A stretch of 32,952 bases of DNA from a virus. Taxonomy: Duplodnaviria > Caudoviricetes. A program made the translations under genes and the position numbers. Position 1 is the stretch's first letter. The number at the start of each line of letters is the position of its first letter. Where the stretch lies: the IMG/VR virus record IMGVR_UViG_3300018074_000014, positions 1 through 32,952 of that record; one strand, 5' to 3'. The notes beneath the pieces were generated by a model. The model had not been told where the DNA came from. It made no database searches and worked only from the letters and a program-made list of their open reading frames with translations. Positions 3,517 through 31,587 of this stretch are shown here, in pieces.

Positions 3517-4055
3517 TGGGTGCCGAAAACCCTGCAAAGCCGACTCCGCAAGAGATCGAAGCCCTGATCGCCGAAATGGCGAGGAACGGCGAAGGAGCGG
3601 ATCAGCGCTGGGCGCTCAACATCCTGCGCCGCGAACAGGAAGCCGAAACCGTCATCCCGCCTCCACTTCAGGATCACGAGGTGATCGAGTACCTGATCCG
3701 CGTCATGCGCCCTTCGGGCCCCGAGCCCTGCATGATCGCCTTCCGCCGTTGCTGGCCCCACAAGGGTATGGACGGGATCAAGAAGCGCCCGGTCATCAGC
3801 GATCGCGACATCAGCCCCGAACAGATGCTGGCGGTCGAAAAGATCACCACTCTCAAGCAGTTCTACAAAGCCTTCCCCGAGATCAAGCCCAGAGGCGGAG
3901 TCCCCAAGGGCTACCCCTCGGGTCGCGGTCTGGTCGAAAAGCGCGATTGGTGCCGCCGAGCTGCCGCCCTGATCCTCGCCGACCGCGAACAGAATCAGAT
4001 CGACGGCAGCATCGCGCAGGAGGGCAAGGATGCCCCTACTACGGCCAGCACGTAA
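3516..4055 (+). CDS. putative terminase small subunit
   Basis: Position immediately upstream of and overlapping TerL, helical, 179 aa; synteny only. Confidence 0.45.
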   Translation: MGAENPAKPTPQEIEALIAEMARNGEGADQRWALNILRREQEAETVIPPPLQDHEVIEYLIRVMRPSGPEPCMIAFRRCWPHKGMDGIKKRPVISDRDISPEQMLAVEKITTLKQFYKAFPEIKPRGGVPKGYPSGRGLVEKRDWCRRAAALILADREQNQIDGSIAQEGKDAPTTAST

Positions 4056-5766
4056 GCCATTCGATCACCTCAAGCAGTTCGATAGCGATGCCCACGTCCG
4101 CCTGCTCCGACATGGAGCCCTGAAGGACTTCTGGACCTTCTTCCAGTACATCTTCGGCGCCCGGACCAATCCCAAGGGCAAGCGCTGGATCGATCCCGAA
4201 GTTCATGAGCCAATGGCGCGCTGGTTCCAGAAGCACGTCGATGAATGGTTCGACGCCCGGGAACGCGGCTGCGGCAGACAGAAGCACATCGCGGCCCTGG
4301 TTCACCGCGAGGTCGGTAAGACCACCATGCTGGTGCAGGCCGGCATCTGCTGGTTGCACCTGCGCGACCCCGAGATCAGCACCTACATTGGTTCGGAGAA
4401 GCTAGAACTCGCGAGTAAGTCCCTGAACGCGATCAAGGCGGTGTTCGACGGCACCGATCCCTACCCGCTGTTCGCCAAGTTGTTCGGCGATTGGAGTCAT
4501 GGCAGTCGCAAGTGGACCGATAAGGAAATCATCCACGTCGCCCGCAAGAACATCAGCCGCCGCGATCCCAGCATCGGCACCTTCGCGGTCGAGACCTCGA
4601 TCGTCGGCGCCCACCCCGACGCGATCTTCTACGACGATCCGATCTCCTACGAACGCCTGCAGAGCGACACCAACTGGCTGGCCACCGTCAACTCCCAGAT
4701 CACCTCCCTCTACCCGGTGATCCAGTCCGATGGCCTGGTGGTCTGGGTCGGGACCAGGTACGACGATGCCGATCACTTCGGCGTGGCGTTCGAGAACGAG
4801 GGTGTGGCGAGCCTCGAAGGTCTGCAGACCGATCAGATCACGGTCGATCCCAAGCACGGTCAATGGCACGTCTACTTCATGGCGGGAAGGAACAGCGATG
4901 GAATCCCAACCACCCCCAAGGTCTGGCCCGAAGACCGGCTGAAGCGCTACCAGAGACGCGACCCGCTGCGCTACGCTGCCCAGGTCATGAACGACCCGAC
5001 CCTGTCCGACACCAACCCACTGACCCGGGAGCAGATCAAGCAGTACGTCGTCAAGAAGGAGCAGGTGCCGTGGAACAGCCTGCGCTACGCCATCTGCTGC
5101 GACACCGCCTTCTCTGACGGCGACAAGGTTCATGGCAAGGACGAGACCGTGTTCATCGTCCATGGCTATCCTCGCAACGGCAGCGGCGACGTCTACGTCA
5201 TCGAGGGCTACGGCTCAGACGCCTGGCGGGCCGAGGACTTCGCCAACCAGCTGATCGCCACGGTACAGCGCTACCGGAGACTGGGAAGATCGATCTTCGC
5301 GATCACTGACGAGATGACCCATGCGGGCAAGAAGGGCGCCTGGGACATGGCGCTGATCTCACGCTTCAACGACGCCGGGATTCCGATGCCCCGCGGCCAG
5401 TTGCTCCAGTTCAATCGCCGCAACGTCCGCAAGGAGGAACGGCTGGTAATCGCCGCTAGCTTCTGGGTCGATGGCCATGTCCGAGTGGTGGAAGACGCCC
5501 CGGGCACCGAGGAGCTGATGAAGCAGATGGCCAAGATCGGCCAGTACATGGTCAACAAGAAGATCAAGATCGACTGGGCCGACGCCCACGCCGACGCCTT
5601 CCAGCCCGAGCTTTACAGCCCGATGCGCCGCGCCGAGACCCGCAAGCCCTACCTGCCCGGCGCTCGCGGGATCGATATGGACGGAATGGACGGCAGCATA
5701 TTCGAGGACTCCGACGAGTATATGCAATGGCGGGACGACAACCCGCGGCCCCCGGAGAGGGGGTGA
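4030..5766 (+). CDS. terL: terminase large subunit
   Basis: Walker A-like HREVGKTT, Walker B GAHPDAIFYDDP, coupling motif VGTRY, nuclease acidic residues CCDTAFS..KDETV and DWADA. Confidence 0.92.
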   Translation: MPLLRPARKPFDHLKQFDSDAHVRLLRHGALKDFWTFFQYIFGARTNPKGKRWIDPEVHEPMARWFQKHVDEWFDARERGCGRQKHIAALVHREVGKTTMLVQAGICWLHLRDPEISTYIGSEKLELASKSLNAIKAVFDGTDPYPLFAKLFGDWSHGSRKWTDKEIIHVARKNISRRDPSIGTFAVETSIVGAHPDAIFYDDPISYERLQSDTNWLATVNSQITSLYPVIQSDGLVVWVGTRYDDADHFGVAFENEGVASLEGLQTDQITVDPKHGQWHVYFMAGRNSDGIPTTPKVWPEDRLKRYQRRDPLRYAAQVMNDPTLSDTNPLTREQIKQYVVKKEQVPWNSLRYAICCDTAFSDGDKVHGKDETVFIVHGYPRNGSGDVYVIEGYGSDAWRAEDFANQLIATVQRYRRLGRSIFAITDEMTHAGKKGAWDMALISRFNDAGIPMPRGQLLQFNRRNVRKEERLVIAASFWVDGHVRVVEDAPGTEELMKQMAKIGQYMVNKKIKIDWADAHADAFQPELYSPMRRAETRKPYLPGARGIDMDGMDGSIFEDSDEYMQWRDDNPRPPERG

Positions 5767-5948
5767 CCCACAAGCATCCGTGCTCGTTCTGTGGCAACAT
5801 CGTGCCGTGTGCCGATAACAACTGCCACACCCGCAACACCTTCATCTGTGACCGCTGCAACGAAAGGCATCTGAAGGGCCTCGGTGGTGTCGTTTTGGCC
5901 AACGAAGCGGAGAAGGATTACCGCAGGAGAACCGGAGGGAACCCATGA
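5763..5948 (+). CDS. small Zn-finger protein
   Basis: GTG start overlapping the terL stop (GTGA); CSFC...CDRC. Confidence 0.6.
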   Translation: MTHKHPCSFCGNIVPCADNNCHTRNTFICDRCNERHLKGLGGVVLANEAEKDYRRRTGGNP

Positions 5949-6151
5949 ACACGCTGTTCGGCATCGTCTTGTTCTCGATCATCGAGAGCGCCGTCGTCAT
6001 CCTGTGGGCCAGCCTTGTATTCAAGAGCGAGGTCTTCACCGGCCAGCAGGTGCTGGGAGCGATCGTGTTCGTGATCGGCTATACCATCGAACACATCGTC
6101 GCCTACAACGTCGGCAAGGGCCGGCCGTTCTTCTCCTGGCCCAAGCCGTGA
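5945..6151 (+). CDS. small two-TM membrane protein
   Basis: Two hydrophobic segments; GGAGGG RBS; coupled to both neighbours. Confidence 0.7.
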   Translation: MNTLFGIVLFSIIESAVVILWASLVFKSEVFTGQQVLGAIVFVIGYTIEHIVAYNVGKGRPFFSWPKP

Positions 6152-7329
6152 TTGCGACGACTCGCACTACCTGCCGTCTCTGCGGCGGGCCGTTCAACAA
6201 TATGCTCTCGCTCGGCAGCCAGTACCTGGCCCGATTCCCAGACAAGATCGATCATGACCTGCCGCGGGTGCCGCTCAACCTGGTCCAGTGTAACTCTTGT
6301 AGCCTGCTCCAGCTTGAGCACACCACGCATCCCGATCTGCTGTTCCGTGAGTTCTGGTATCGAAGCTCGATCAACCAGACCATGCGGGACGCCCTTCAAG
6401 AGGTGGTGGACGACGCCCTGACCTATGTTAGCAAGGGCACCTGGCTCGACATCGGGGCTAACGACGGCTACCTGCTCTCCTGTCTTCCGGAGGGCTGGAC
6501 CAAGATCGCCTGCGAACCGGCGGTCAACTTCAAGCCGCTGCTGGAGGAGCATGCCGACCATGTCATCGCCGACTACTTCTCGGCCAACCACGAATGTCTC
6601 CGGGACAAGACCCGCGGCGCCTGCGACGTCATCACGTCGGTCGCCTGCTTTTACGACGTCGATGACCCGAACACCTTCGTCGCCGACATCGCCAAGGCGC
6701 TCGCCCCGGGCGGGGTCTGGATCAACCAGCTCAACGACTCCCCCACGATGCTCAAGACCAACGCCTTCGATTCGATCTGCCACGAGCACCTGGTCCACTA
6801 TGATATCCACAATCTGGCCATGCTTTACCTCCGCCACGGTCTCTACATCACTAAGATCAGCTTCAACGACATCAACGGTGGCAGCGTCCGGGTCTTTGCC
6901 CATAAGGAAGTAGCCGGCCTGAGACCGCTGGGACTGCGGGACGTTCCCAAATGCACCCCCGAGGCGGTGGAAGCCTTCGCGCGCCGGGTCGTTCGCTGGA
7001 AGGAGGAAATGGGTAATCTCCTGAAGGCGACCAAGCACGGTGTCTGGGGTTATGGCGCCAGCACCAAGGGCGCGGTCTTGCTCCAGTACCTGGACTGTAA
7101 TGACCGCTTTGTAGCCATCGCCGATCGCAACCCGCTGAAGTACGGCAAGCTGATGGCAGGAAGCTGGATTCCGATCACCGGAGAGGCAGAGATGCGTAAG
7201 GAGCATCCTGGCCATGCGGTAGTGCTGCCGTGGCCCTTCGCCAAAGAGTTCTCCGAACGGGAGGCCCAGACCCGCGCTAGCGGCACGGCATTTGTTTATC
7301 CGCTCCCCGAGATCAGGATCGAACTTTGA
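6148..7329 (+). CDS. NDP-sugar C-methyltransferase (Zn-binding N-domain, SAM domain, C-MT C-terminal domain)
   Basis: CRLC...CNSCSLLQL, LDIGANDGYLL, ICHEHLVHY, INGGSVR, YGASTKG, LPWPF. True start is GTG 6148, not 5884. Confidence 0.9.
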   Translation: MIATTRTTCRLCGGPFNNMLSLGSQYLARFPDKIDHDLPRVPLNLVQCNSCSLLQLEHTTHPDLLFREFWYRSSINQTMRDALQEVVDDALTYVSKGTWLDIGANDGYLLSCLPEGWTKIACEPAVNFKPLLEEHADHVIADYFSANHECLRDKTRGACDVITSVACFYDVDDPNTFVADIAKALAPGGVWINQLNDSPTMLKTNAFDSICHEHLVHYDIHNLAMLYLRHGLYITKISFNDINGGSVRVFAHKEVAGLRPLGLRDVPKCTPEAVEAFARRVVRWKEEMGNLLKATKHGVWGYGASTKGAVLLQYLDCNDRFVAIADRNPLKYGKLMAGSWIPITGEAEMRKEHPGHAVVLPWPFAKEFSEREAQTRASGTAFVYPLPEIRIEL

Positions 7330-7955
7330 GGATTGGGGTGCTGTGTCCCACCCGGGACGGCCCGGATCGGCTTCGGCAGGCGTTCCAGTCGATGATCGAT
7401 ACCTCCAAAAGCACCACGATGATCGCCTGCATCGACGACGATCAACGGGGTCTCTATGCGCCGATCCAGCACGAGCGATTGGTCTATCACGTCGCCCCCC
7501 GGGTCAACGTTGTCGATCTGCTCAACTCCGCCGTCAAGCTCCATCCATTTGACGTCTACGGCCTGATGGTCGACGACGCCCGCTTCAAGACCTTCGGATG
7601 GGACGACTACGTCGTCAGAACGATCGAGGCGTTCCCGGCCGGCATCGGCGTGGTCTCCGCCCACCACGGCAAGGGCTGGTTCGTGAACTTCCCCTATGTC
7701 TCGGCCCGCTGGATCGAGGTCGTAGGCTGGTACGCCTGTCCCCAGACCCATCACTTCTGCTGGGACACGGTCTTGGAACTGCTCGGCGAGGCGACACACA
7801 TTGACTATGCGTCGGAGCAGAACTTTGCCATCGAACACGATCTCCTACAAAACGACGCCACCCTGTGCAAGTTCGCCAGTGACTGCATTCAGTTCCTGGG
7901 ATGGTGTGTCAATGGCCGGCGCGACGTGGTTCAGAAGCTGCGCGAGGCGATGTGA
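7326..7955 (+). CDS. GT-A fold (GT2-like) glycosyltransferase, paralogue 1
   Basis: VLCPTRDGPDRL, IDDD, MVDDARFKTFGWD. Confidence 0.75.
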   Translation: MRIGVLCPTRDGPDRLRQAFQSMIDTSKSTTMIACIDDDQRGLYAPIQHERLVYHVAPRVNVVDLLNSAVKLHPFDVYGLMVDDARFKTFGWDDYVVRTIEAFPAGIGVVSAHHGKGWFVNFPYVSARWIEVVGWYACPQTHHFCWDTVLELLGEATHIDYASEQNFAIEHDLLQNDATLCKFASDCIQFLGWCVNGRRDVVQKLREAM

Positions 7956-8612
7956 TCGCTGTCCTATGCCCGACCCGCCGCGGACCCGACGCCCTCAAGC
8001 TACTAGCCAAGTCGGTGGCTGACACCTCCAACGCTCGGGTGCTGGCTTATGTAGATGATGACAGTCGCGAGGCGTACCGCCACGGCTGGGGGCAGAATCC
8101 TGGGCAGTTCGTTGATGCCATGGCCCGGACTTTCATCTACGAGGGACCAAGGATTGGACCTGTTGCCTCGATGAATGTTCTCGTGAACCACTATCTAGAT
8201 CAGTTCGATATCTTCGGTATGGTCCCCGACGATGCCACGTTCGAGACCGCAGGATGGGACCGGCGCATGGAAGAAGTGGCGGCCAGTTTTCAGGGCGGCA
8301 TTGGTGCTATGTCACCAAAACATAGCCTGGGGGATCATGTCGATATCCCGTTCGTGACGAGGCGATGGATCGATATCCTCGGCTGGTTTGCCTATCCGGG
8401 TTTCTACCACTGGGGCTGGCCCACCGTGATCTCGGCGCTGGCAGAAGGCATCCAGTCGTTGGTCCATTTGCCGGAGGAAAGCTGTTTTGTCCGCCACGAT
8501 CATCTGGAGCCCATGAAATCAGGACACCTCGCATGAAGACACGAAGCAGTTTTACGCCTTCATGATCGCTCGCTATCAGAACGCATTGAAGCATTTGAGG
8601 GACGCCAGATGA
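7952..8612 (+). pseudogene. GT2-like glycosyltransferase paralogue 2 with a +1 frameshift near the 3' end
   Basis: GTG 7952 frame stops at 8536. The paralogous C-terminal helix (QDTSHEDTKQFYAFMIARYQNALKHLRDAR*) continues in the +1 frame to TGA 8612, overlapping the next ATG. Confidence 0.75.
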
Positions 8613-9238
8613 GAGTGGCGGTGTTATGCCCGACCCGGGATCGCCCTGAACGCTTTCAACGTCTGTGTGATTCCGTCAAGGCCACCTCGTCGGAGGCCGT
8701 GGTCCGGGGCTACGTCGACGAGGATCAGGTAGACCTCTACCCGCCGAGCAATGGCCAGCGGTTCAGCTGGGAGTCGGGACCGAGGGTTGGCGTCGTCGCG
8801 GCCCTCAATCACCTGGTCAGAAAGAACCCCGGATTCGACGCCTACGGCATCCTGACCGACGACTGTGTCGTAAACACGCCGGGCTGGGACTACTACATCG
8901 GCGAGGTGATGGACTCGTTTCCGCGCCGACTGTGTGTGGTCTCGCCCTACCACAACTTCGGCAACCAAGTGGACATGCCATTTGTGAGCAAGGAATGGAT
9001 TAGGTTGATCGGCTGGTACGCCTGTCCCAACACTTACCACTACTGCTGGCCTATCATCACCGGCCTGATCGGCGAGATGACGGCGATCTGCCACTGCCCG
9101 ATGACCCGGTTTGGAATCGAGCACGATCTTCATGTCGAAAACAAGGCGGCGCAGGTGCGAGATGCCCAGCCGTTCTTTGAGTTTGTGAGTCTAAAACTAC
9201 CGGCGTTGGTCGAGCGCATCCGCGAGGCAATGAAATGA
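8609..9238 (+). CDS. GT2-like glycosyltransferase, paralogue 3
   Basis: VLCPTRDRPERF, YVDED, LTDDCVVNTPGWD, VDMPFVSKEWI. Confidence 0.75.
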   Translation: MRVAVLCPTRDRPERFQRLCDSVKATSSEAVVRGYVDEDQVDLYPPSNGQRFSWESGPRVGVVAALNHLVRKNPGFDAYGILTDDCVVNTPGWDYYIGEVMDSFPRRLCVVSPYHNFGNQVDMPFVSKEWIRLIGWYACPNTYHYCWPIITGLIGEMTAICHCPMTRFGIEHDLHVENKAAQVRDAQPFFEFVSLKLPALVERIREAMK

Positions 9239-9876
9239 ACCAGAACCCCTATCGAGTGCTCGACTATCCTAACGGATTTATCTCGGAATGGATTGCCGGC
9301 AAGTTCCCGGACGGATACCGCGGCCATGCCATCGACATTGGCGCCTCCGACGGCATCTCCGTCAACAACACCTATCACCTGGAGCGCGCTCATCGCTGGA
9401 CCGTGCTCTCAGTCGAGGCGAATCCCAAGTTTTTGCCCCTGATCCGGAAGCACCGCACCTGGTACGAGTGCTGCGCCTGCGCGGCGGAGCCCATCGATGA
9501 GGCCACGTTCTATGTCAATCCATTACAGCCAGAGGTATATTCGGCGCTCAAGGTGCCGGGCCGTCCGCGGATTATCGTCAATGGTCAGTCTTGCGAGTCG
9601 GAGAAGCCGGCCAACTGGGAACAGATCAAGGTGCCGGTGCGGACCGTAGACCAGTTGCTAGACAAGTGGTCATTCCCCAAGCTCGATCTGCTCTCGATCG
9701 ATGTCGAGGGTGGAGAGCGAGACGTGCTGATGGGCTGCGATCTGTTGCGCTGGAAACCCAAATGGATCGTCTCGGAATCTTGGGAGCCGGGAGGCGAGCA
9801 TGTCTATCTCTCAACCTACGGCTATCAGCGCGTCGCGCGTTGCGCCCACAACGACATCTACATGCTGGTGGAGTAA
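9235..9876 (+). CDS. FkbM-family methyltransferase
   Basis: IDIGASDGISVNNT, VEANP, LDLLSIDVEGGERDVLMG. Confidence 0.88.
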   Translation: MNQNPYRVLDYPNGFISEWIAGKFPDGYRGHAIDIGASDGISVNNTYHLERAHRWTVLSVEANPKFLPLIRKHRTWYECCACAAEPIDEATFYVNPLQPEVYSALKVPGRPRIIVNGQSCESEKPANWEQIKVPVRTVDQLLDKWSFPKLDLLSIDVEGGERDVLMGCDLLRWKPKWIVSESWEPGGEHVYLSTYGYQRVARCAHNDIYMLVE

Positions 9877-10451
9877 TGAGCGAGTATTCTGGCAATAACG
9901 TCGATGACATTGTCAGGCCGTTTCTTCCCGACATTGGCTGGGCCTGCGATGTCGGGGCCAGCGACGGGGTTTTCTTCAGCAATACGCTCGCGTTCGAGGA
10001 GCGTGGCTGGACCGTGCTTTGCATCGAGGCCAATCCGCTGTTGGCAGAGAAGGGGCAGTCACGCAGGAAACTATGGCGTGCGGTGGCCGCCGGGGCAGAG
10101 GACGCCGAAGATCGCGAGTTCTTCGCCTACGGCAGTGAGCCCTATCCCAGCTGGTCGTCGCTGGCGCCGATAAAGAGCACCCCGGGGCAACGGCCAATCC
10201 ATGCCTTCAAAGTCCCCGTGCGTCGGCTCGACCGCCTGCTGGAGGAGGTCGGATTCGATCGGCTCGACTTTTTGACCATAGACGCCGAAGGATACGAGCC
10301 GGAAATCCTGGCGGGGTTCACGGTCGAACGCTGGAAGCCTAAAGTCATCGTCGCCGAAAGCTGGAAGGAGGGCACTCTGGCGACCCCGCCCGGCTATTCC
10401 CTGATTCGGCGGGTGGAGTACGATAACATCTTCATTCGGGAGGGAGCATGA
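9876..10451 (+). CDS. FkbM-family methyltransferase
   Basis: Start ATG 9876 (TAATG overlap); DVGASDGVFFSNT, IEANP, LDFLTIDAEGYEPEILAG. Confidence 0.88.
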   Translation: MSEYSGNNVDDIVRPFLPDIGWACDVGASDGVFFSNTLAFEERGWTVLCIEANPLLAEKGQSRRKLWRAVAAGAEDAEDREFFAYGSEPYPSWSSLAPIKSTPGQRPIHAFKVPVRRLDRLLEEVGFDRLDFLTIDAEGYEPEILAGFTVERWKPKVIVAESWKEGTLATPPGYSLIRRVEYDNIFIREGA

Positions 10452-11834: not shown

Positions 11835-13739
11835 ATGCAAGGCAAGTATCCCTCGGGGGAGTTGCCAGACCAGCGCCAGGCGGTTTCCACGGCGCGGCTG
11901 ATCGAACTCGTAGATGGACGCAGGCAGGACAGCATCCGCTACAACTCCAACCTGTTCAACAAGCTCAAGTCCTACTACGACAGCTATCGGGGTCTCTGGT
12001 CAGGGCGGCTCAACCAGTTCCGCAACCAGCTGACGATTCCCTTCACCTTCGCGATGATCCAGTCGGACGTTGCCCGCAAGGTCCAGACCTCGTTCGGGGC
12101 GTGGCCGATCGTCTCCTTCGAGGGCTATGCCCCCGAGGACGTGGCGCGCGCCAAGAAGAACGAAGTGCTGGTCTCGGCCCAGATGAAGGACGCCAACTCG
12201 ATCATCAAGGCGGTGGACCTCTACCTTCAGGCCGACATCTGCGGCACCGGAATCGTGCGCTACGGCTGGAAGAACATCACCCGCAAGAACCGCTTCCGCA
12301 AGATGGAGCAGATCGCCCCCGGCCTGACCATCCCCGTGGTCCACGAGGAGATGTCAGAAATCTTCAACGGCCCCAACTGGGAGCCGGTAGATCGCCTAGA
12401 TTTCTGGCAGCAGCCGGCCGTCAAGCGGATCGAGGCCATGGGGTGGGTGATCCACCGCTACTGGGCAGACTTCGACGACCTGATGGACGACGCTAACAGC
12501 CCGACCCCCTACTTCGATCCGCGCGCCGTCAGGGCCCTCAAGGACGCGCCGCTTCAGGGTGCGGCCTATGGCGAGTTCATCGAGCGCAAGGTCGCCTTCC
12601 GGAACGAGTTCGACTACACCGCGCGGCAGAACGAGCGCTTCGCTAAGCCGGTCGAAATCTGGGAGATGCACGGCCTAGTGCCGAACGAGTTCACCAACGA
12701 CGGCATCAGAGGCCGCTGCGTCGCGATCGGTAACGGCCGGGTAGTGCTCAAGAACCGCGAAGGGCCGATGCCGAACCAGCAGAAGCCCTTCCTCGCCTAC
12801 TGCCCGATGCCCGATCCCTACAGCTTCGACGGCATCGGCAAGGCGGAAATCGCCTACGGACCCCAGAAGACCATCGACCGGATCGGCAACCAGAAGCTCG
12901 ACGCCATCGATCTCTTGATCGATCCAATGTGGGCCGCCTCCGACACCGCGCTCAACAACCAGTCGCAGAACCTGTTCACCCGCGCCGGACGCGTTCTGCT
13001 CATCAACGGACCCGCCGACGAAACCTCGCTGCGCGCCCTGTCCCCGAACACTCAGGGCGTCAACATGGCCTACACGGAGATGGGCCAGCTGCACCAGTTC
13101 ATGCAGGTGGGCATGGGCCTGAACGACATCATCATGGGCATGAATAGCGGCGAGCGCGAGACCGCCCGCGGCACTCTGGCGCGGCAGGAGAACGCCATGA
13201 CCCGGCTCGGTATGGAGTCCCGGCTGGCGGAGGAGGGCCTGATCGAGCCGCTGGCGAACGCCTTCCGGCTGATGAACCGCGACTGGCTGCCGGTGCCGCA
13301 GCAGTTGAAGATTCTCGGTAGTTTGGCGATGGTCAATCCGATCACTGGGCTCCCGATGCCACAGGATTCGGTCTCGATCGACTACGACGATCTGGCCCCC
13401 GACTATCGCGCCCGCGCGGTGGGAGCAAGCCAGATGATGGGCCGTTCGGTGCGGCAGCAGAACTTCCTCGCCCTGTTCCAGTTCCTGTCTGCCAACCCGG
13501 TGATGATGCAGATGGTCAACTGGGCCGCCTTCGCCCGCCAGGCGTTCGAGCTGTTCGATTTCAAGAACATCGACGAGCTGCTGGTGCAGACGGTGCCGAT
13601 GGTGAACCAGCTGGCACAGGACACCGGACAGAACCCGATGGCAATCGCCGGGGCGGTGAGTCAGGACCTTCCCCAGCTCGATCCGGGCGTTCTCGGCCAG
13701 TTGATGCAGACCCAGAACCTAGGAAGGATCGCGGCCTGA
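11835..13739 (+). CDS. portal protein (P22/SU10-like)
   Basis: 634 aa; GTGIVRYGW, VEIWEMHG, P..YSFDGIG, RETARG; position in the head module. Confidence 0.88.
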   Translation: MQGKYPSGELPDQRQAVSTARLIELVDGRRQDSIRYNSNLFNKLKSYYDSYRGLWSGRLNQFRNQLTIPFTFAMIQSDVARKVQTSFGAWPIVSFEGYAPEDVARAKKNEVLVSAQMKDANSIIKAVDLYLQADICGTGIVRYGWKNITRKNRFRKMEQIAPGLTIPVVHEEMSEIFNGPNWEPVDRLDFWQQPAVKRIEAMGWVIHRYWADFDDLMDDANSPTPYFDPRAVRALKDAPLQGAAYGEFIERKVAFRNEFDYTARQNERFAKPVEIWEMHGLVPNEFTNDGIRGRCVAIGNGRVVLKNREGPMPNQQKPFLAYCPMPDPYSFDGIGKAEIAYGPQKTIDRIGNQKLDAIDLLIDPMWAASDTALNNQSQNLFTRAGRVLLINGPADETSLRALSPNTQGVNMAYTEMGQLHQFMQVGMGLNDIIMGMNSGERETARGTLARQENAMTRLGMESRLAEEGLIEPLANAFRLMNRDWLPVPQQLKILGSLAMVNPITGLPMPQDSVSIDYDDLAPDYRARAVGASQMMGRSVRQQNFLALFQFLSANPVMMQMVNWAAFARQAFELFDFKNIDELLVQTVPMVNQLAQDTGQNPMAIAGAVSQDLPQLDPGVLGQLMQTQNLGRIAA

Positions 13740-14783: not shown

Positions 14784-15725
14784 ATGCCTGGTTCTACCAC
14801 CTACGACGTCGGCTTTTGGCCATCTGCCACTGCGCCGACGCACGAGGATTTGGTGGATATCGTCACCATCCTCGATTCGTTTCAGGCTCCATTTTTCTCG
14901 TCTTCGCCGAAGAACCGCGCGCGTGACGTGATCCATTCATGGACCGTGGACACGCTGGCGGCCACGGCGACAGCTGGAAGCGTCGAGATGTCGGCGTTCG
15001 GCGTCAGTACGCTCACCGCTCCGACTCGTCTGATCAACGCCACGCAGATTTTCCGGCGCGACATCGAGGTGTCGGATCGCGAGCGAGCCAGCAACGTTGC
15101 CGGCATCCGCGACATGTACGAACACCAGATCATGAAGGAGTTCAAGGTCATCGCCCGCAACTTCGAGGCACGCGTCTTCGCGAGCACGCTGGCAAGCACG
15201 GGCACGGCCTCGGGCGACAACAACAACGCTTCGCGCATGGCAGGCATCCGTGGCTTCTCAATCATCACGGCATCCTCGGCGTCAGGAGGCGTCACCACGG
15301 CCGACATCGTTACGCTCTCGGAGTCGCTGTTCAACGCCGGAGCGGAGCCGGATTCGATTTGGTTCGCCCCGTCATCGAAGCGTCAGTTCGTCAATGCCAC
15401 CGTGTCTTCGGGCTCGGGTAACGTGCGGAACATCGCGGCGACCGATCAGAAGCTGGTGGCCAACATCGACATCTTCGAGACGCCGTTCAATCAGCTCTAC
15501 GCCGTCATCACCGATCGGTTCATTCCGATCAGCACCAACTCGGCATCGGGTGCGTACTTCATCGGTGATCGTTCGATGGCCAAGACGAGCTTCTTCCGCC
15601 CGCCCCAGCACAAGCCGATGGGCAAGACAGGGGACGGCACGCGCGGTCTGGTGCTCATGGAGTGCACGCTTCAGCTCGATCACCCATCGAGTTGGGCAGC
15701 CATGACAGGTGTCATCAACAGCTAG
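14784..15725 (+). CDS. major capsid protein (SU10/DUF5309-like)
   Basis: EDLVDIV, HSWTVDTL, NATQIF..VS, MAGI, ETPF, KTGDGTRGLVLMECTL. Confidence 0.9.
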   Translation: MPGSTTYDVGFWPSATAPTHEDLVDIVTILDSFQAPFFSSSPKNRARDVIHSWTVDTLAATATAGSVEMSAFGVSTLTAPTRLINATQIFRRDIEVSDRERASNVAGIRDMYEHQIMKEFKVIARNFEARVFASTLASTGTASGDNNNASRMAGIRGFSIITASSASGGVTTADIVTLSESLFNAGAEPDSIWFAPSSKRQFVNATVSSGSGNVRNIAATDQKLVANIDIFETPFNQLYAVITDRFIPISTNSASGAYFIGDRSMAKTSFFRPPQHKPMGKTGDGTRGLVLMECTLQLDHPSSWAAMTGVINS

Positions 15726-16754: not shown

Positions 16755-16929
16755 GGAGCGCGCCTATGGCTCCGGAGCCTATGGAGTCTCGGAGTCAGAC
16801 AGCCTGTACAAACCCGGCGCCCATCCGCCGACGCTCAGCACCAAGCCATGGGACACGTTGATGGGTATTGCGACCAAGATCGGCAAGAAGATCGAACCCA
16901 AGCTAAATAAGTTTTTGAGAGGCAAATGA
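16723..16929 (+). CDS. small basic hypothetical protein
   Basis: ATG 16723 with AAGGAGG RBS; ATGA-coupled to the next gene. Confidence 0.55.
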   Translation: MADYSPRPKRKERAYGSGAYGVSESDSLYKPGAHPPTLSTKPWDTLMGIATKIGKKIEPKLNKFLRGK

Positions 16930-18236
16930 GCCAGAAGAACCCGCTCAAGGTCTATACCTCGGTGCCGCAGAAGCATACGGCCAGCTTCTATTATCGGCTC
17001 CAGGTGCCGTTGCGGGCGGCGCAGATGCTTCAGCTACCGATCAAGGCGGTAATCGATACCGATTCGGCTTCGGTGTCGAATGAAGATCGGGTCCGTATCT
17101 TCTCCGAATCCGATCTCATCCTGCTCTATCAGCCGGTGGGCGAGTCGGCGAACCAGAACGTGCGCGCCGTTCAGAGCTTCCTACCGAGCAAGCGCGATGA
17201 TGGCTGGAAATGGGCGCCGACGATCGTGCTGGAGGCCGACGACAACCTGTTCAACGTCTCGCCACTCAATCAGGCATTCAAGAGCCTTGGCATCCGAGAC
17301 ATGAACGGCACCGAGATTCCGGTCGGCCACCACGTTGGCGTGATGAGGGACGGAGAGCGGCGGGTGCTCTGGAAGGACGGCGAGAACGGATTCTCGATCG
17401 CCAAGAACCGTCAGGCGGTGTCCGCCTATCGAAAAATCATCGATATGGCGGACGCGATCCAATGTTCTACCTCGGCCGTGGAGGCGGCGGTCAAGAAAGA
17501 GACGACGCCGCGCCGGACCCGGGTGTTCCCGAACAGCATGATAATGTCGGACTACGAGCAGGTGGACCTGCGCGAGACTCCCGACCAGATCAGGATTCTC
17601 TGGCAGGGCGGCATTAGTCACTGGGAGGACTGGTATCCGCTGAGGGAGGCGCTGGGCAACATCACGAAGAAGTATCCGCAGGTCCACTGGGTCATTTGGG
17701 GCGCCAACTTCCCCTGGGTGAACGAGTTGATCCCGGCTCACCGAATGACCTTCAAGTCCTGGTGCCCCTATCCGGAGTACCGGCTCCGACTGGCAATGGT
17801 CGGGCACGACATCAACCTGGCCCCGCTCACCGACAACGTCTTCAACGTCTGCCGATCGGCAATCAAGTGGTACGAGTCGAGCGTGCTCAAGAAGTCAATC
17901 CCAACGCTGGCGCAGAACACGGCCGCCTATGCACGCGAGATGGTGGACGGCGAAACCGGGCTCCTGTTCAACAACCCGGAGGAGTTCGAGTTGAAGCTGG
18001 GTCAACTGATCGAGGACGCCAGTCTCAGGAAGACGCTGGGGAGCAACGCCAGGGACTGGGTGCATGAGAACCGCGATGCGCTCAAGATCACACCCGAGAT
18101 CGTCGGATTCTGGGAGCAGTTGCGGGAGGAGCGCAAGATCGAGCAGCCGCACGCCTCCGATGATGAGTGGAAGGAGATCGTGGCGGAAGCAGAAGCGGAG
18201 ATGCAGCAGGAACAACCGATCGTTCCCGTGGGGTAA
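16926..18236 (+). CDS. GT-B fold (GT4-like) glycosyltransferase
   Basis: FYYRLQVP, EADDNLF, VFPNS, DINLAPL.DN.FN.CRSAIKWYE, GETGLL. Confidence 0.85.
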   Translation: MSQKNPLKVYTSVPQKHTASFYYRLQVPLRAAQMLQLPIKAVIDTDSASVSNEDRVRIFSESDLILLYQPVGESANQNVRAVQSFLPSKRDDGWKWAPTIVLEADDNLFNVSPLNQAFKSLGIRDMNGTEIPVGHHVGVMRDGERRVLWKDGENGFSIAKNRQAVSAYRKIIDMADAIQCSTSAVEAAVKKETTPRRTRVFPNSMIMSDYEQVDLRETPDQIRILWQGGISHWEDWYPLREALGNITKKYPQVHWVIWGANFPWVNELIPAHRMTFKSWCPYPEYRLRLAMVGHDINLAPLTDNVFNVCRSAIKWYESSVLKKSIPTLAQNTAAYAREMVDGETGLLFNNPEEFELKLGQLIEDASLRKTLGSNARDWVHENRDALKITPEIVGFWEQLREERKIEQPHASDDEWKEIVAEAEAEMQQEQPIVPVG

Positions 18237-18239
18237 GAG

Positions 18240-19154
18240 ATGGCCCTGTTTTTTGCTTCCACCAAGCCATGGATAACCGCAGTAGGAGAGATCGCCGATA
18301 CGATCGGGGCCTCTGCTCAGGGAGCGATGACCGATCGCGCCCACAAGTCTCTGGTTGCGGCGGTCCAGTACTTCAACGGCAAGAAGTGGGAGTTCATGAC
18401 CACCGAGGGGACCCCGACCCAGGTCTTCGGCCCCTTCAACGTCTCGGTCACCGCTTCCTCGGGACAGGTCACCGCGGCGGTCGTTACCGATCACGGCGTC
18501 AAGGTGGACGATCTTCTGGTAGGGAACGGCTTCGGTGCCGGGACGCGGGTAACGGCGACCGGGGCCAACTCGATCTCTTTCAACTTCGCGGTCGCGACTG
18601 CGTCCGGGGCGCAGAGCTACGACATCACGGCCCAGCGCGCCTTCTACGACTTGCCGTCCGACTTCAAGACCGAGTACTCGGTCCAGTTGCTGGGCAGTAA
18701 TCGCACGCTGTTCCCGCTGCGGCGCCGGATGCGGGTCCGTTCTCAGCCGCAGGAGAACTTGGCCTCTACCACCGATCGCTACGACATCTTCTCGGTGGGC
18801 CAGAAGGGCAAGATCAGGCTGGTCCACGATCCGGGCGGCAACGATGTGCTCCAGCTCGGCTACTACCGCCGGATCGCGGTCGGCTCGGCGTCGGGTGACA
18901 GCACTACGCTGGACATCCCGCACGACTACGAGCTTTACCTGCTCTCCTACGCCAAGTGGCACTTCCTGGTGGACAAGTCAGAGGGGCGGGTGGAGCAGGG
19001 GGCGGTCTGGATTGCTCTGGCCAAGGAGGGCCTGCAAACCATGATCGCGGACCAGACCGATCATCCCGACGAGGGGCTGGCGTTCACGCCCGGCCACTAC
19101 TGGGGCTACTCGACGTCTCCCAACGACGTCCGCCCCTACCTCAACGAGCCCTAA
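18240..19154 (+). CDS. head-tail adaptor (tail tubular protein A-like) with inserted beta domain
   Basis: N-terminal helix..WEF, YDLPSDF, YYRR, IPHDYELYLLSYA; synteny. Confidence 0.7.
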   Translation: MALFFASTKPWITAVGEIADTIGASAQGAMTDRAHKSLVAAVQYFNGKKWEFMTTEGTPTQVFGPFNVSVTASSGQVTAAVVTDHGVKVDDLLVGNGFGAGTRVTATGANSISFNFAVATASGAQSYDITAQRAFYDLPSDFKTEYSVQLLGSNRTLFPLRRRMRVRSQPQENLASTTDRYDIFSVGQKGKIRLVHDPGGNDVLQLGYYRRIAVGSASGDSTTLDIPHDYELYLLSYAKWHFLVDKSEGRVEQGAVWIALAKEGLQTMIADQTDHPDEGLAFTPGHYWGYSTSPNDVRPYLNEP

Positions 19155-28402: not shown

Positions 28403-28920
28403 TGGCTGCGGGATGGAAGGCAATCTTAGGTCAGGTCGCTCCTGCGCTGGCAACTGCGCTCGGCGGTCCGCTGGCCGGCATGGCGGTCAAGGAACTCGGC
28501 GCCAAGTGGCTTGGTAAGCCGGACGCCAAAGAGAGCGATATCGAGGCAGCGGTGATTGCGGCCAATCCCGAGACGCTGCTTAAACTCAGGGAACTAGACA
28601 ATGCCTTCAAGTCAAAACTGGTTGAAGCCGGAGTCGAGCTTGAACGTCTTACCGTGGAGGATCGAGCGTCGGCTCGCGCAAGAGAGATTGCGCTCAAGGA
28701 TTGGACGCCGAAGCTCGTTGCGTTTTCGATCCTCGCAATCTTCGCCAGCACGCACGTTTTCCTGCTTTCTCAGGAAGCTCCCGCGGGATCTCGCGAACTG
28801 GTGGCGCGAGCGATGGGTACGCTTGATGCCCTGACGGTAGCAATCGTGAGTTACTATTTCGGTTCAAGTTCCGGCAGCCGCGCCAAGACCGAATCCCTGA
28901 TCGACAAGGCGACAAAATAA
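28402..28920 (+). CDS. 3TM holin-family protein
   Basis: VAPALATALGGPLAG, DRASARARE, YYFGSSSGS; probable GTG start at 28402. Confidence 0.75.
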   Translation: MAAGWKAILGQVAPALATALGGPLAGMAVKELGAKWLGKPDAKESDIEAAVIAANPETLLKLRELDNAFKSKLVEAGVELERLTVEDRASARAREIALKDWTPKLVAFSILAIFASTHVFLLSQEAPAGSRELVARAMGTLDALTVAIVSYYFGSSSGSRAKTESLIDKATK

Positions 28921-28952
28921 ACCGGCCAGAGCCAACAACTCCCTGGCCAGTT
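28914..28952 (-). terminator. intrinsic terminator (possibly bidirectional) closing the repeat transcript
   Basis: Minus strand: AACTGGCCAGGG-AGTTGTTGG-CTCTGGCCGGTT then TATTTT. The two G.U pairs form only on the minus strand. Confidence 0.65.
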
Positions 28953-28955
28953 GTC

Positions 28956-29155
28956 GCCTAGCCGCGCCTTGCCCAGCCACGCCCGGCCACGCCTCGCCCC
29001 GCCTTGCCGCGCCCGGCCGTGCCTTGCCGTGCCTTGCCTTGCCCCGCCATGCCCCGCCCGGCCTTGCCCCGCCATGCCCCGCCCCGCCATGCCCCGCCCG
29101 GCCGTGCCTTGCCTTGCCCAGCCGAGCCACGCCACGCCTTGCCCTGCCGCGCCTT
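28956..29155 (-). repeat. 40 x 5-nt array of invariant GGC plus variable NN; candidate guide ncRNA
   Basis: Plus strand reads (GCCNN)40 with no phase break; it begins 2 nt after the stop codon of the RAMP-like gene. Confidence 0.95.
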
Positions 29156-29157
29156 GC

Positions 29158-29781
29158 TTACAACCAACCTACGACTTCGCACTTGCCAAACTGACCGCGG
29201 AACGTCCCGAGCCCAACTGCCACCATGCCGTCAGTCATGACATTCATAATCTGCTGCTCTTGAATCATGCGATTGGGCCATAACGTCAACGTGAACGACA
29301 ACTCCCAAGGCAGTGGCAGCACGGGTCTGACTTTTGGGTTGGGAATGCCTTTTGGCAACCTAGCGACCTGACGATGCACGTAGATTCCTGATATCTTATC
29401 TAGGTCGTTGTCGAGTTTGCCAAACACGATTGGCTCATCATCCCTAAGAAACGGGATCATCTTCGGACCAATATTCACGAACGAACCACATGCGGTTGTG
29501 AAGTTCTTGTATTTACGGCTGTCGAGCAATCGCTTGGGGGCCGAATCGGTGTTTTGGGCCGAGAGGAACGACATTATATTCGCCGAAGGCAGGCATATTG
29601 TTCTGCCCTGTTCTCCGCCCAGATAGAGTTTTTGCCACGGCTCCAGCTTGGTGTCGTTGTCGCCAGGATAGCGGTCGAACATGATGTCGGTCAGACCGCG
29701 CAGGCGCACTTGCCGGACGATCTTCTCGCGAGTTCCGCTTTCGGCTCTGGTTTTTAGTTCCTGCTTTTCCTGTTCTTTCAT
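29158..29781 (-). CDS. stand-alone RAMP / Cas7-like RNA-binding protein
   Basis: beta1 VRLRGLTDIMF, LPSANIMSFL (RAMP iPgssikg-like), RPVLPLPWELSFTLTL, C-terminal Gly-rich loop GMVAVGLGTFRGQFGKCEV; GAGGTG RBS. Confidence 0.75.
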   Translation of the reverse strand: MKEQEKQELKTRAESGTREKIVRQVRLRGLTDIMFDRYPGDNDTKLEPWQKLYLGGEQGRTICLPSANIMSFLSAQNTDSAPKRLLDSRKYKNFTTACGSFVNIGPKMIPFLRDDEPIVFGKLDNDLDKISGIYVHRQVARLPKGIPNPKVRPVLPLPWELSFTLTLWPNRMIQEQQIMNVMTDGMVAVGLGTFRGQFGKCEVVGWL

Positions 29782-29835
29782 TTATCACCTCATTCTCCTT
29801 GGTTTATGACAGCATCACGCTCGTGACGAAGTACA

Positions 29836-30069
29836 CTAGCCCCGCCGCGCCTCGCTCAGCCAGGTCCCGCCGCGCCACGCCGCGCGCCTACTGATCTCCA
29901 TCGCCACGATTCGATCGATCTCCGCGCGCACCCGAGCCCGAATAGTTTCCCTCAGACCGCCGTTCAGTGCGATCTCATTGGCGATGTTGTCATTCGCCGC
30001 GCGCCGCCGCTTTGCCAGCACTCTGGGAGCCTTGTCCAACTCCTTCAATCGCTTCTCTCTCGTCGTCAC
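29836..30069 (-). CDS. basic helical hypothetical protein
   Basis: Probable GTG start at 30069 (VTTREKRL...) with GAAAGG upstream. Confidence 0.5.
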   Translation of the reverse strand: MTTREKRLKELDKAPRVLAKRRRAANDNIANEIALNGGLRETIRARVRAEIDRIVAMEISRRAAWRGGTWLSEARRG

Positions 30070-30098
30070 GGAAAACCTTTCTGCGACCAATGGTCGCC

Positions 30099-30182
30099 CT
30101 AGAACAATGCCACGCTGGCCAGATAACAGAGCACTCCTAACACCACCAGCAATATCGCGATCTCCCACAGCAGTTTCTTCAT
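30099..30182 (-). CDS. 27 aa single-TM peptide
   Basis: MKKLLWEIAILLVVLGVLCYLASVALF; GAGGG RBS; absent from the ORF track. Confidence 0.5.
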   Translation of the reverse strand: MKKLLWEIAILLVVLGVLCYLASVALF

Positions 30183-30195
30183 GGTGTCCCTCATT

Positions 30196-30243
30196 AAAAA
30201 GGGGGGCGGGCACCTAGCGGCCATCGTGGCCACGGTCCCGCCC
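30196..30243 (-). terminator. long hairpin with U-tract
   Basis: GGGCGGG-ACC-GTGGCCA-CGA-TGGCCGC-TA-GGT-G-CCCGCCC then CCCTTTTT. Confidence 0.6.
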
Positions 30244-30379: not shown

Positions 30380-30796
30380 TCACCTCCCTTCTCTCGGAAG
30401 CAAGCGCTTGAGTTCGGATTCCAGCCATAGCCGTTCGATTTCGCGATCGAGCTTGGGTTTGTTGCGCTTGTGCTCCCACGCCTTGAGCGCCAGCGCCCGG
30501 TCCGGGAACTTGTCCATCCACCACTGAAGCCCCTCGCCGGGTCTGGCCAGCGATCCCTTGTGGCTGTCGAACCAGAAGTGATGAGCGGCACACAGAGCGA
30601 GAGAAGCCCACGGGACAAAGACCAGGGACTTGGCCTTCCGATTCTTGATGTGTGCCCAGTGGACAGACTGTTTGATCCCCGACGAGCCACACTTCTGGCA
30701 CTTGTTTTGGTCCCGAATCTCCACCACCAGCCGGCGGCAGAGCTTGGTCATCAAGGCGTGGGAGGTCTTGCGGGTCGCCCTCTTGGACGCCCTCAC
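30380..30796 (-). CDS. NinG/Rap-like HNH-type nuclease
   Basis: IRDQNKCQKCG, HWAHI..R, ALCAAHHFWF; GTG 30796 overlaps the upstream stop. Confidence 0.65.
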   Translation of the reverse strand: MRASKRATRKTSHALMTKLCRRLVVEIRDQNKCQKCGSSGIKQSVHWAHIKNRKAKSLVFVPWASLALCAAHHFWFDSHKGSLARPGEGLQWWMDKFPDRALALKAWEHKRNKPKLDREIERLWLESELKRLLPREGR

Positions 30797-31587
30797 GGCG
30801 TGCCCGCAGTAGGTTCCGGGGGCGGCGAGGTGGCGAGGGCGACTGCCCGCCGCGAGGCTCGCCTCGCTTCGCTCGCCACCTTCTGGACGCGCTGTGCTCC
30901 GGCAAGGGGATCGCCAAAGAATACAGACACCGAATCGAGCGCGTTGGCCATCTCCCGCAGAGCCGCCTCCAGCGCGACGCACCGGGCCTCGGCGGCCTCT
31001 GCTCGGTCATATTGCTGCACTAGGTCGGAGTCATCGACCGTCTTGGCCGAAGCTTCGCGCAGCATGGCCTCGATCCGGTCTGGTAGGTCGATGAACGAGG
31101 CGTCCGGCGCGTACTTCTTGGTCAGCACTTCGCAACACGCCAGCGCCGCCACTCGCTCGGCGCTCAGCGCCCGCACCGCTTCGCCGTAGCCCGATTCCCC
31201 CGGTACCACGACCCCAGCGTCCACCAGAGCCCCGCTAACATTAGCGAGCCATGCCGCGGACCGGTCCAGCGCGGCGCGGGCGTCCAGCAAGTCGCGGACG
31301 GCGCGTAATCCGATATGAACTTGATACTGCGGCAGATGGTCGAATTCTACGCCGCAGTCGGCGAGGTAGGTTTCAAGCTCGTCCCGACTCACCCTCGGGC
31401 TCGGTTCGGTATGGGCAGGGGCGGGACCAGGGCGCACCGGCGCGGCGGAGTCGCTGGCGCTGACGTCGGCGCCGTCTCCGCTTGAACTCGCATCCCCTCT
31501 CGGGGCTCCCGCTCCCTGCTTCGTTTCGGTCTGTGGCTGGTGGTCTGATTCTGCGGGCATTTCGCTCGGCTTCTCGGCGGCGGTCAC
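30793..31587 (-). CDS. hypothetical coiled-coil protein
   Basis: GTG 31587 is coupled to the methyltransferase stop; low-complexity ends. Confidence 0.55.
   Translation of the reverse strand: MTAAEKPSEMPAESDHQPQTETKQGAGAPRGDASSSGDGADVSASDSAAPVRPGPAPAHTEPSPRVSRDELETYLADCGVEFDHLPQYQVHIGLRAVRDLLDARAALDRSAAWLANVSGALVDAGVVVPGESGYGEAVRALSAERVAALACCEVLTKKYAPDASFIDLPDRIEAMLREASAKTVDDSDLVQQYDRAEAAEARCVALEAALREMANALDSVSVFFGDPLAGAQRVQKVASEARRASRRAVALATSPPPEPTAGTP

Follow-up and report, generated by a model that had tools for sequence, protein, structure and literature searches.

The closest described systems are those of VIPR, which was defined with vrRNAs of 9-16 units and a structured tail (10.64898/2026.04.26.720920); arrays of up to 30 repeats are cited in the accessible part of a second preprint (10.64898/2026.04.26.720927). 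For Escherichia phage SUSP1, skips of 0-3 nt were tested and only a 1-nt skip was found, a code in which two target bases are read and one is skipped, and this rule was then applied to Pseudomonas fulva and to types III and V; for type I, the accessible portion of the text gives no target rule (10.64898/2026.04.26.720920). In the available text of the VIPR preprints, the skip is presented as the code of the family and explained as protection against wobble escape, and repression is the outcome demonstrated for SUSP1 VIPR. The skipped base is described, in the part available, as lodged in the thumb/alpha-bundle pocket of SUSP1 Vipr (10.64898/2026.04.26.720927). Anti-vipr guides of SUSP1-family phages are wobble-aligned, nearly 90% skipping the wobble base, and solo vrRNAs using the Vipr of another phage are reported, again according to partial text (10.64898/2026.10.15.759431); the accessible text of a further preprint reports other fixed triplets and no other skips (10.64898/2026.10.21.760802). 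A literature search, carried out mostly outside subscription journals and preprint supplements, found no report of a zero-skip VIPR. We consider it probable that the phage-borne locus described here is a VIPR-type locus whose clade reads its guides by a zero-skip code.

The window, by which the whole analysed stretch of 32,952 nt is meant, is a podovirus-like phage contig with terminase, SU10-type portal, capsid and adaptor genes (Table 1), the viral or proviral location expected of VIPR. A preliminary description, made from the sequence alone, proposed a RAMP ORF of 207 residues, 40 phased units beginning 2 nt past its TAA and a terminator behind them, with neither a CRISPR array nor other cas genes. 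The ORF is indeed present and contains both LPSANI (residues 64-69) and GLGTFRGQFG (residues 190-199); it is followed by 40 uninterrupted GGC-NN units, whose NN-GGC phase runs from 29155 to 28956 on the minus strand, and by a 12-bp hairpin with a U-rich tract. No CRISPR-like repeat family was detected in the window, and PADLOC recognized 0 of its 21 proteins. The downstream array thus stands as described, but a second, degenerate array upstream on the same strand had been overlooked, which runs from 29881 to 29837, ends 56 nt before the vipr start codon and overlaps the 3' end of the upstream ORF.

Table 1. Coordinates of the locus and of the phage genes that place it within the window
Feature	Position	Strand	Remark
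vipr gene, stand-alone RAMP of 207 aa, Cas7/Csm3-like fold	29158..29781	-	without the alpha-helical bundle of SUSP1 Vipr, as judged from aligned sequence
Shine-Dalgarno-like GAGGTG ahead of the vipr ATG	29786..29791	-	seen in sequence
Downstream guide array, 40 perfect GGC-NN units	28954..29153	-	80 variable bases
12-bp hairpin and U-rich tract	28913..28952	-	probable intrinsic terminator / 3' end of the array transcript
Upstream degenerate array, 9 units	29837..29881	-	7 perfect units, one GAC and one AGC unit
Upstream ORF, no known family	29836..30213	-	final codons traverse the upstream array
HNH-endonuclease-like gene, two ORFs upstream of vipr	30380..30982	-	PHROG HNH, E 2.9e-7
Terminase large subunit	4030-5766	+	
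SU10-type portal	11835-13739	+	
Major capsid protein	14784-15725	+	
Adaptor	18240-19154	+	

The downstream array is the sole perfect phased run of at least 4 units on either strand of the window; with GGC at a frequency of 0.031 per position, 40 phased units would arise by chance at about 1e-60. The terminator hairpin has a minimum free energy (MFE) of -19.4 kcal/mol (z -2.9), and a pseudoknot reading of the array tail was considered, the MFE structure being the terminator fold; by eye, the tails of close relatives look unrelated to one another. Around the locus, neither an Rfam match nor a sigma-70 promoter was detected, and homologues of the window's neighbour genes, including the upstream ORF and the HNH gene, were not found beside other vipr genes, so that the upstream ORF does not qualify as a conserved vap. 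Elsewhere in the window, a methyltransferase cluster (C-methyltransferase, FkbM-like) with three diverged 54-nt repeats lies between terminase and portal at 5884-10173, and together with a glycosyltransferase-like gene at 16926-18236 it suggests a virion-modification module.

Independent assemblies back most of the downstream array. A second assembly (L021) is identical across its first 14 units, up to the end of the L021 contig, and two Logan contigs from run X1, possibly the source sample itself, agree with the array throughout and overlap each other by only 24 nt; none alone spans it, and the count of 40 rests on the window's assembly. This circumstance, an internal 4-unit repeat (p 0.065) and the negative target search described below are what could be expected if the array were a repeat that had expanded by slippage, decayed or been mis-assembled and that at present lacks a target. 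However, the scaffold triplets are perfect in 40 of 40 units, the gene is intact, the terminator is in place, and the clade often has long arrays (over 30 units in 54 of 282), which makes such an origin highly improbable.

The RAMP/Cas7 fold predicted for the protein at the outset is borne out: the protein has a Cas7/Csm3-like fold with the RRM core, thumb and G-loop of a RAMP located outside CRISPR-Cas, as is characteristic of VIPR. SUSP1 Vipr was the sole significant PDB match of the family profiles (E 2.5e-5; 7.4e-10), hhalign of the window family against SUSP1 Vipr returned a probability of 97%, and phrog_4652 is common to the two proteins. On these profile comparisons, the window's protein is a distant homologue of SUSP1 Vipr. 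The thumb Arg and the aromatic-Arg pair of the G-loop are conserved, R152, F194 and R195 here corresponding to R138, W178 and R179 in SUSP1. The segment equivalent to the alpha-helical bundle, which takes up 43 residues in SUSP1 (H17-Y60), has 17 residues and one 4-residue helix in the window's protein and 10-23 residues in 132 family representatives; the SUSP1 anchors were placed by hand, MAFFT having misaligned that part, and the SUSP1 structure (PDB 36pp) was used by sequence, bundle loss being judged from the alignment. As far as the aligned segments tell, the bundle is absent from the window's protein and from its family. Pfam, PADLOC and a single-sequence PDB search of the protein yielded nothing useful, a GntR match (E 0.017) was dismissed, and the ESM Atlas held unnamed viral clusters only, plus a RAMP lead at 0.77. 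The Vipr branch without vap comprises 496 clusters at 50% identity.

The pairing of gene and array, which the preliminary description had proposed to check, recurs among the homologues: same-strand arrays of differing NN content adjoin 124 of 135 genes, a count that leaves out the window and distant rows (37-50% identity) and takes as an array at least 8 units within 1.5 kb on the same strand. The 180 homologue-bearing loci that were fetched gave 148 aligned distinct genes. An array starts no more than 20 nt from the stop codon in 77 of 122 relatives, and arrays flank the gene on both sides in 61 of the 111 relatives with enough flank. Among the 282 arrays mentioned above, whose lengths tolerate isolated one-mismatch units, the median is 18 units, 165 exceed 16, 25 reach 40 and the maximum is 96; the first 99 loci, with 224 arrays in all, have 5 that contain a perfect run of at least 40 units, and the window's array is one of these. 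The triplet is GGC in 86% of units, NN entropy amounts to 3.8 of 4 bits, and the final units are A-rich (A fraction 0.70 vs 0.28 inside). Three decoded guides (L141 array +22, L076 array +450 and L078 array -74) end in pure A tracts of 12-24 bases, written as GGCAA runs, and such tracts could be either a 3' loading element that replaces the pseudoknot tail or a trace of guide writing. Between near-identical phages, entire blocks have been gained or lost (L069/L070/L076; L077/L080), and the arrays of L077 and L080 are staggered by 1 nt.

No accessory gene is conserved at these loci. Of 148 loci, 13 and 10 carry the commonest neighbour families, which resemble generic recombination genes, and the vap accessory gene of types II-VII is not conserved at these loci. 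The earlier statement that no nuclease is linked extends to the relatives, whose neighbours include no conserved nuclease partner; repression would therefore be the likely output. Rfam searches of 20 fetched loci returned tRNAs only and no hammerhead. At five divergent loci (L005, L006, L141, L143 and L162) the same gene type directly adjoins vipr; judging by its motifs we take it to be metallophosphoesterase-like, and it is a possible vap of a sub-branch. Homologues without a detected GGY array of at least 7 units in the fetched flanks (L004/L105, L082, L142, L155 and L167) may use another triplet or have lost the array, and a perfect 13-unit GGY-NN array on the minus strand near 1571 of the reversed locus L193, with no vipr in the 21 kb fetched, is possibly a solo guide; the capsid protein of the L193 phage is 75% identical to that of the window phage. 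The outgroup L007-L016 (37-40% identity) has arrays of 11-22 units with conserved, structured-looking tails in a phage head-gene region. The cultured Burkholderia phage vB_E436 (L100) encodes a homologue of 55% identity beside a short degenerate array, and its clade (L129, L146-L148, L153, L155, L156 and L161) offers a tractable experimental system.

The reading rule was approached by decoding every array under skips of 0, 1 and 2 nt and searching the fetched DNA. In a first pass, 8 of 166 arrays matched at 20-21 of 22 under zero skip and none did so under the other skips. In an ungapped search of 207 arrays, 8 reached at least 18 at zero skip and 0 at skips of 1 and 2 nt, against 0.0 per 207 in tenfold shuffles, and all 8 matches fall within vipr genes of other loci; in a larger set the ungapped search gave 9 of 331 arrays at zero skip, where 0.6 were expected from shuffles. 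With a codon-aware vipr profile, 10 of 331 arrays scored at least 24 at zero skip and 0 at skips of 1 or 2 nt, the maximum over 1324 shuffles being 20.4. VIPR's published 1-nt skip rule thus fails at clade level, and for this reason the locus is not filed as a standard 1-skip VIPR. The preliminary description had the dinucleotides spell a gapped target; the clade evidence instead favours a gapped guide with an ungapped target, and it is likely, on these sequence matches, that the clade reads ungapped DNA through a gapped guide.

The best match of a single array (p 2e-12) is at locus L043, where 37 nt encode RLEKGIPNPKVR, and other decoded blocks likewise translate to conserved Vipr peptides (GDNNTKLE, IMFDRY, IKEQDIIN, IVSFLSAH, LRDKRKYK). 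The directly joined NN pairs of these relatives spell real gene sequence, on either strand and with third codon positions included. Nine lineages carry the zero-skip signal (L043, L057, L067, L069/70/76, L072, L134, L161, L113 and L151, with L069, L070 and L076 taken as one). The matched blocks measure about 20-37 nt, start at unit 1 and reach the A-rich end in short arrays, and fill part of long ones. A single site of 21 nt is encoded by both L067 and L070, with 2 mismatches and with the dinucleotide register of one opposite to that of the other. Copying at the level of units cannot yield this arrangement, which implies two independent transfers of contiguous DNA into the scaffold. Read at zero skip, the L161 guide matches 19 of 19 bases ahead of vipr in the sister locus L156, against 13 of 19 for its best own-locus match. 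Outside vipr, genes of the own locus were matched by 3 of 259 arrays at p<0.001 (3.5e-9, 3.9e-6 and 2.8e-4), compared with 0 of 259 when the genes came from another locus; relaxing the limit to p<0.01 gave 5 and 4 of 259, respectively. Two of the matched non-vipr genes are, as look-alikes by motif, presumably a YqaJ-type exonuclease and a Sak4-like ATPase.

The majority of the clade's arrays are without an assigned target. When the 24 arrays of seven near-whole contigs were compared with the contigs that carry them, neither zero nor 1-nt skip added a match at p<0.01. Internal AA-AA doublets, considered as guide boundaries, were not enriched in long arrays (16 vs 22.3 in shuffles), and a five-base periodicity of the decoded guides, compared guide against array, was set aside, the 9 of 323 cases at p<=0.02 being near chance and often A-tracts.

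It could be argued that the window is an ordinary VIPR with a 1-nt skip and that zero skip is confined to its relatives, given that the 1-skip rule is demonstrated for SUSP1 and P. fulva and has been extended to two further types (10.64898/2026.04.26.720920). Against the window's own and kin gene profiles, the window's arrays also do marginally better at 1-nt skip, where shuffles were as good in 16 of 200 cases, than at zero skip (85 of 200; 2-nt skip, 35 of 200), none of these values being significant. On the other side, the 54 arrays of the window's subclade include 2 with p<0.001 against vipr at zero skip and 0 at 1-nt skip, and the 244 arrays of the sister clade include 9 and 1. The missing 1-skip matches cannot be ascribed to weak power, because planted 12-unit guides reached 24 in 66% of cases when written with 1-nt skip and in 39% when written with zero skip, with no cross-detection. 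In addition, the NN composition is without codon-phase signal, autocorrelation having revealed none in any of the three phases, and the window's protein, which lacks the bundle, is bracketed by zero-skip loci. In a quick maximum-likelihood tree of 148 rows it falls into a 24-row clade (SH-aLRT 97) with L043, which carries three zero-skip guides, while the remaining zero-skip loci are in the sister clade (L057 lies outside the alignment behind the tree). Within the subclade only L043 (66% identical) is significant, L026 (2e-3) and L038 (2e-3) being borderline. D36, Y53, P65, N68, K83, R141, R152, T193, F194 and R195 as well as a 16-residue segment are identical between the window and the zero-skip loci checked. 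Because of this bracketing on the tree and the shared residues, we infer the zero-skip rule for the window's Vipr, and an ordinary 1-nt skip in the window appears unlikely.

A bundle-less Vipr could also be permissive, accepting both zero and 1-nt skip, or some arrays could serve another Vipr that skips one base. The locus L072 points in this direction, as it holds a zero-skip guide (p 2.4e-6) together with a 17/17 wobble-aligned match to a vipr motif at 1-nt skip (p 2.5e-4); the outgroup of 37-40% identity, which is bundle-less as well, gives weak signals that are slightly better at 1-nt skip (1 of 23 at p<0.001), and the solo vrRNAs that use another phage's Vipr, reported in the available text of 10.64898/2026.10.15.759431, would be a precedent for the second variant. 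Yet L072 is one case in 298 ingroup arrays read under three rules, which is near chance (0.8 expected at >=20), and we hold permissive reading to be quite unlikely. A 21/21 match of L134 to L138 at 2-nt skip likewise runs counter to a strict zero-skip rule; it lies in G-rich DNA, with 0.2 expected.

The zero-skip guides bear a peculiar relation to the phage that carries them. They usually spell the phage's own peptide with different codons: over 11 guides, codon position 3 accounts for 72 of the 89 mismatches with the own gene, and in 11 of 11 another phage's gene fits better at the DNA level than the own gene, with exact matches of 17-20 nt. At codons capable of synonymous change, the own gene departs from the guide in 61 of 80 cases, where 43.1 were expected from other homologues (z 4.6), and the difference exceeds expectation in 10 of 10 guides; L057 was dropped from this test as unaligned, and the codons are not independent. 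Eight guides are in sense and three in antisense orientation, and guides on both strands fit a double-stranded DNA target. Self-directed guides, which would autoregulate vipr and its neighbours through pairing tolerant of a mismatch at every third base, would agree with peptide-level comparisons, in which the best match of a decoded guide is often a protein of the phage that carries it; in L043 the agreement extends to 10 of 10 residues, the variable part included. However, the differences are nearly all synonymous, also at two-fold sites and at first positions of Leu and Arg codons, which free drift would ignore, and the better fit of other phages' genes and an own gene more different than expected also speak against autoregulation, which is accordingly very unlikely. 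Local recoding of the own gene was considered and is not borne out, synonymous divergence among close relatives being 123/262 inside targeted windows and 1371/3072 outside; GC3 is lower inside targeted windows (56/96 vs 879/1229 outside), which is no more than suggestive, and a selection filter on persisting guides accounts for the self-mismatch equally well.

For the window's own arrays, a search of the window's genes and of the VIPR loci gave no significant target, and neither did one exact 17-nt probe of IMG/VR, whose two matches did not extend beyond the probe. A likeness to the window's own portal gene (7 of 9 residues) was discarded, as 22 of 300 shuffles equalled it and, among 120 portal homologues, all 64 in which the motif is visible lack the variant found in the guide. 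Fifty-one loci of capsid- and DUF6745-related phages offered neither a target nor a vipr gene. The arrays L026 +273 and L073 -6 each have 13 decoded bases in common with the window's array in the same register, which is near chance and possibly reflects a common target or a shared block. The preliminary description had all 40 dinucleotides jointly specify one target; because the matched blocks of relatives measure about 20-37 nt, the 40 units more likely represent 2-3 guides, and the AA-AA doublets at units 8-9 and 23-24 are no more than a hint at their boundaries.

By analogy with SUSP1, Vipr protomers would coat the array RNA, one per unit, with GGC buried, and the NN pairs would then align and pair with uninterrupted double-stranded DNA of 20-37 bp. 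A Vipr that lacks the bundle pocket would flip out none of the target bases, and each protomer would advance by two bases on continuous pairing; the lost helical bundle may thus be the structural cause of zero skip, although perhaps not the whole cause, because the bundle-less outgroup shows weak signals that lean slightly towards 1-nt skip. The complex would be likely to silence genes of closely related rival phages, the window's 40 units acting as 2-3 in-phase guides. Reading of the wobble base would allow the vipr and recombination genes of a relative to be silenced while the synonymous own copy is spared, at the price of resistance to synonymous escape.

A broader proposition, to which we assign about even chances, is that the vap-less branch uses a second code (5 RNA bases per 2 contiguous DNA bases), tells kin from self by synonymous sites and constitutes an adaptive memory free of Cas1, in which an acquisition process converts contiguous DNA, in either register and orientation, to GGC-NN units ending A-rich and adds or drops whole guide blocks. 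If the branch does read contiguous DNA, then skip length is evolvable and tied to one protein element, target searches with a 1-nt skip would miss the targets of this clade, and a 23-kDa protein without vap would provide specificity at every base, which could be useful for programmable repression. How VIPR guides originate becomes directly testable with guides that reproduce as many as 12 codons exactly and do so in either register.

The comparison with known systems summarizes where this locus belongs. From Class 1 CRISPR RAMPs (Csm3, Cmr4, Cas7) it is separated by the lack of a CRISPR array or other cas gene in the window and by guide information that is interleaved with a fixed triplet. The likeness to the VIPR (GGY/NN) architecture, pointed out in the preliminary description, is confirmed by Vipr homology and by same-strand GGC-NN arrays. 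With type II VIPR (Escherichia phage SUSP1, Pseudomonas fulva prophage) the locus shares a RAMP that a phage encodes in the absence of CRISPR and cas genes, GGY/NN arrays on either side of the gene and on its strand, the thumb Arg and G-loop aromatic-Arg, and targets on both strands. It differs in that decoding in the window's clade is probably by zero skip where SUSP1 uses a 1-nt skip, in that alpha-bundle and vap gene are absent from the clade, and in that the clade's arrays end in A-rich units with no conserved pseudoknot tail evident; the similarity of the window family to SUSP1 Vipr is remote and limited to the C-terminal half, and array lengths of up to 96 units in the clade and 40 in the window exceed the published 9-16 and 'up to 30'. 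Because the accessible preprint text lists vap genes for types II-VII, the vap-less system may be type I; the 1-nt stagger of two relatives is shared with type I or staggered-array VIPR as far as this is described in the available text, and none of the five founding accessions was among the 10 clusters looked up. With the anti-vipr and solo vrRNAs of SUSP1-family phages, as partially accessible, the clade has in common guides that are aimed at the vipr genes of rivals and a lower match to self, whereas its own guides include the wobble base, which is where self and non-self differ.
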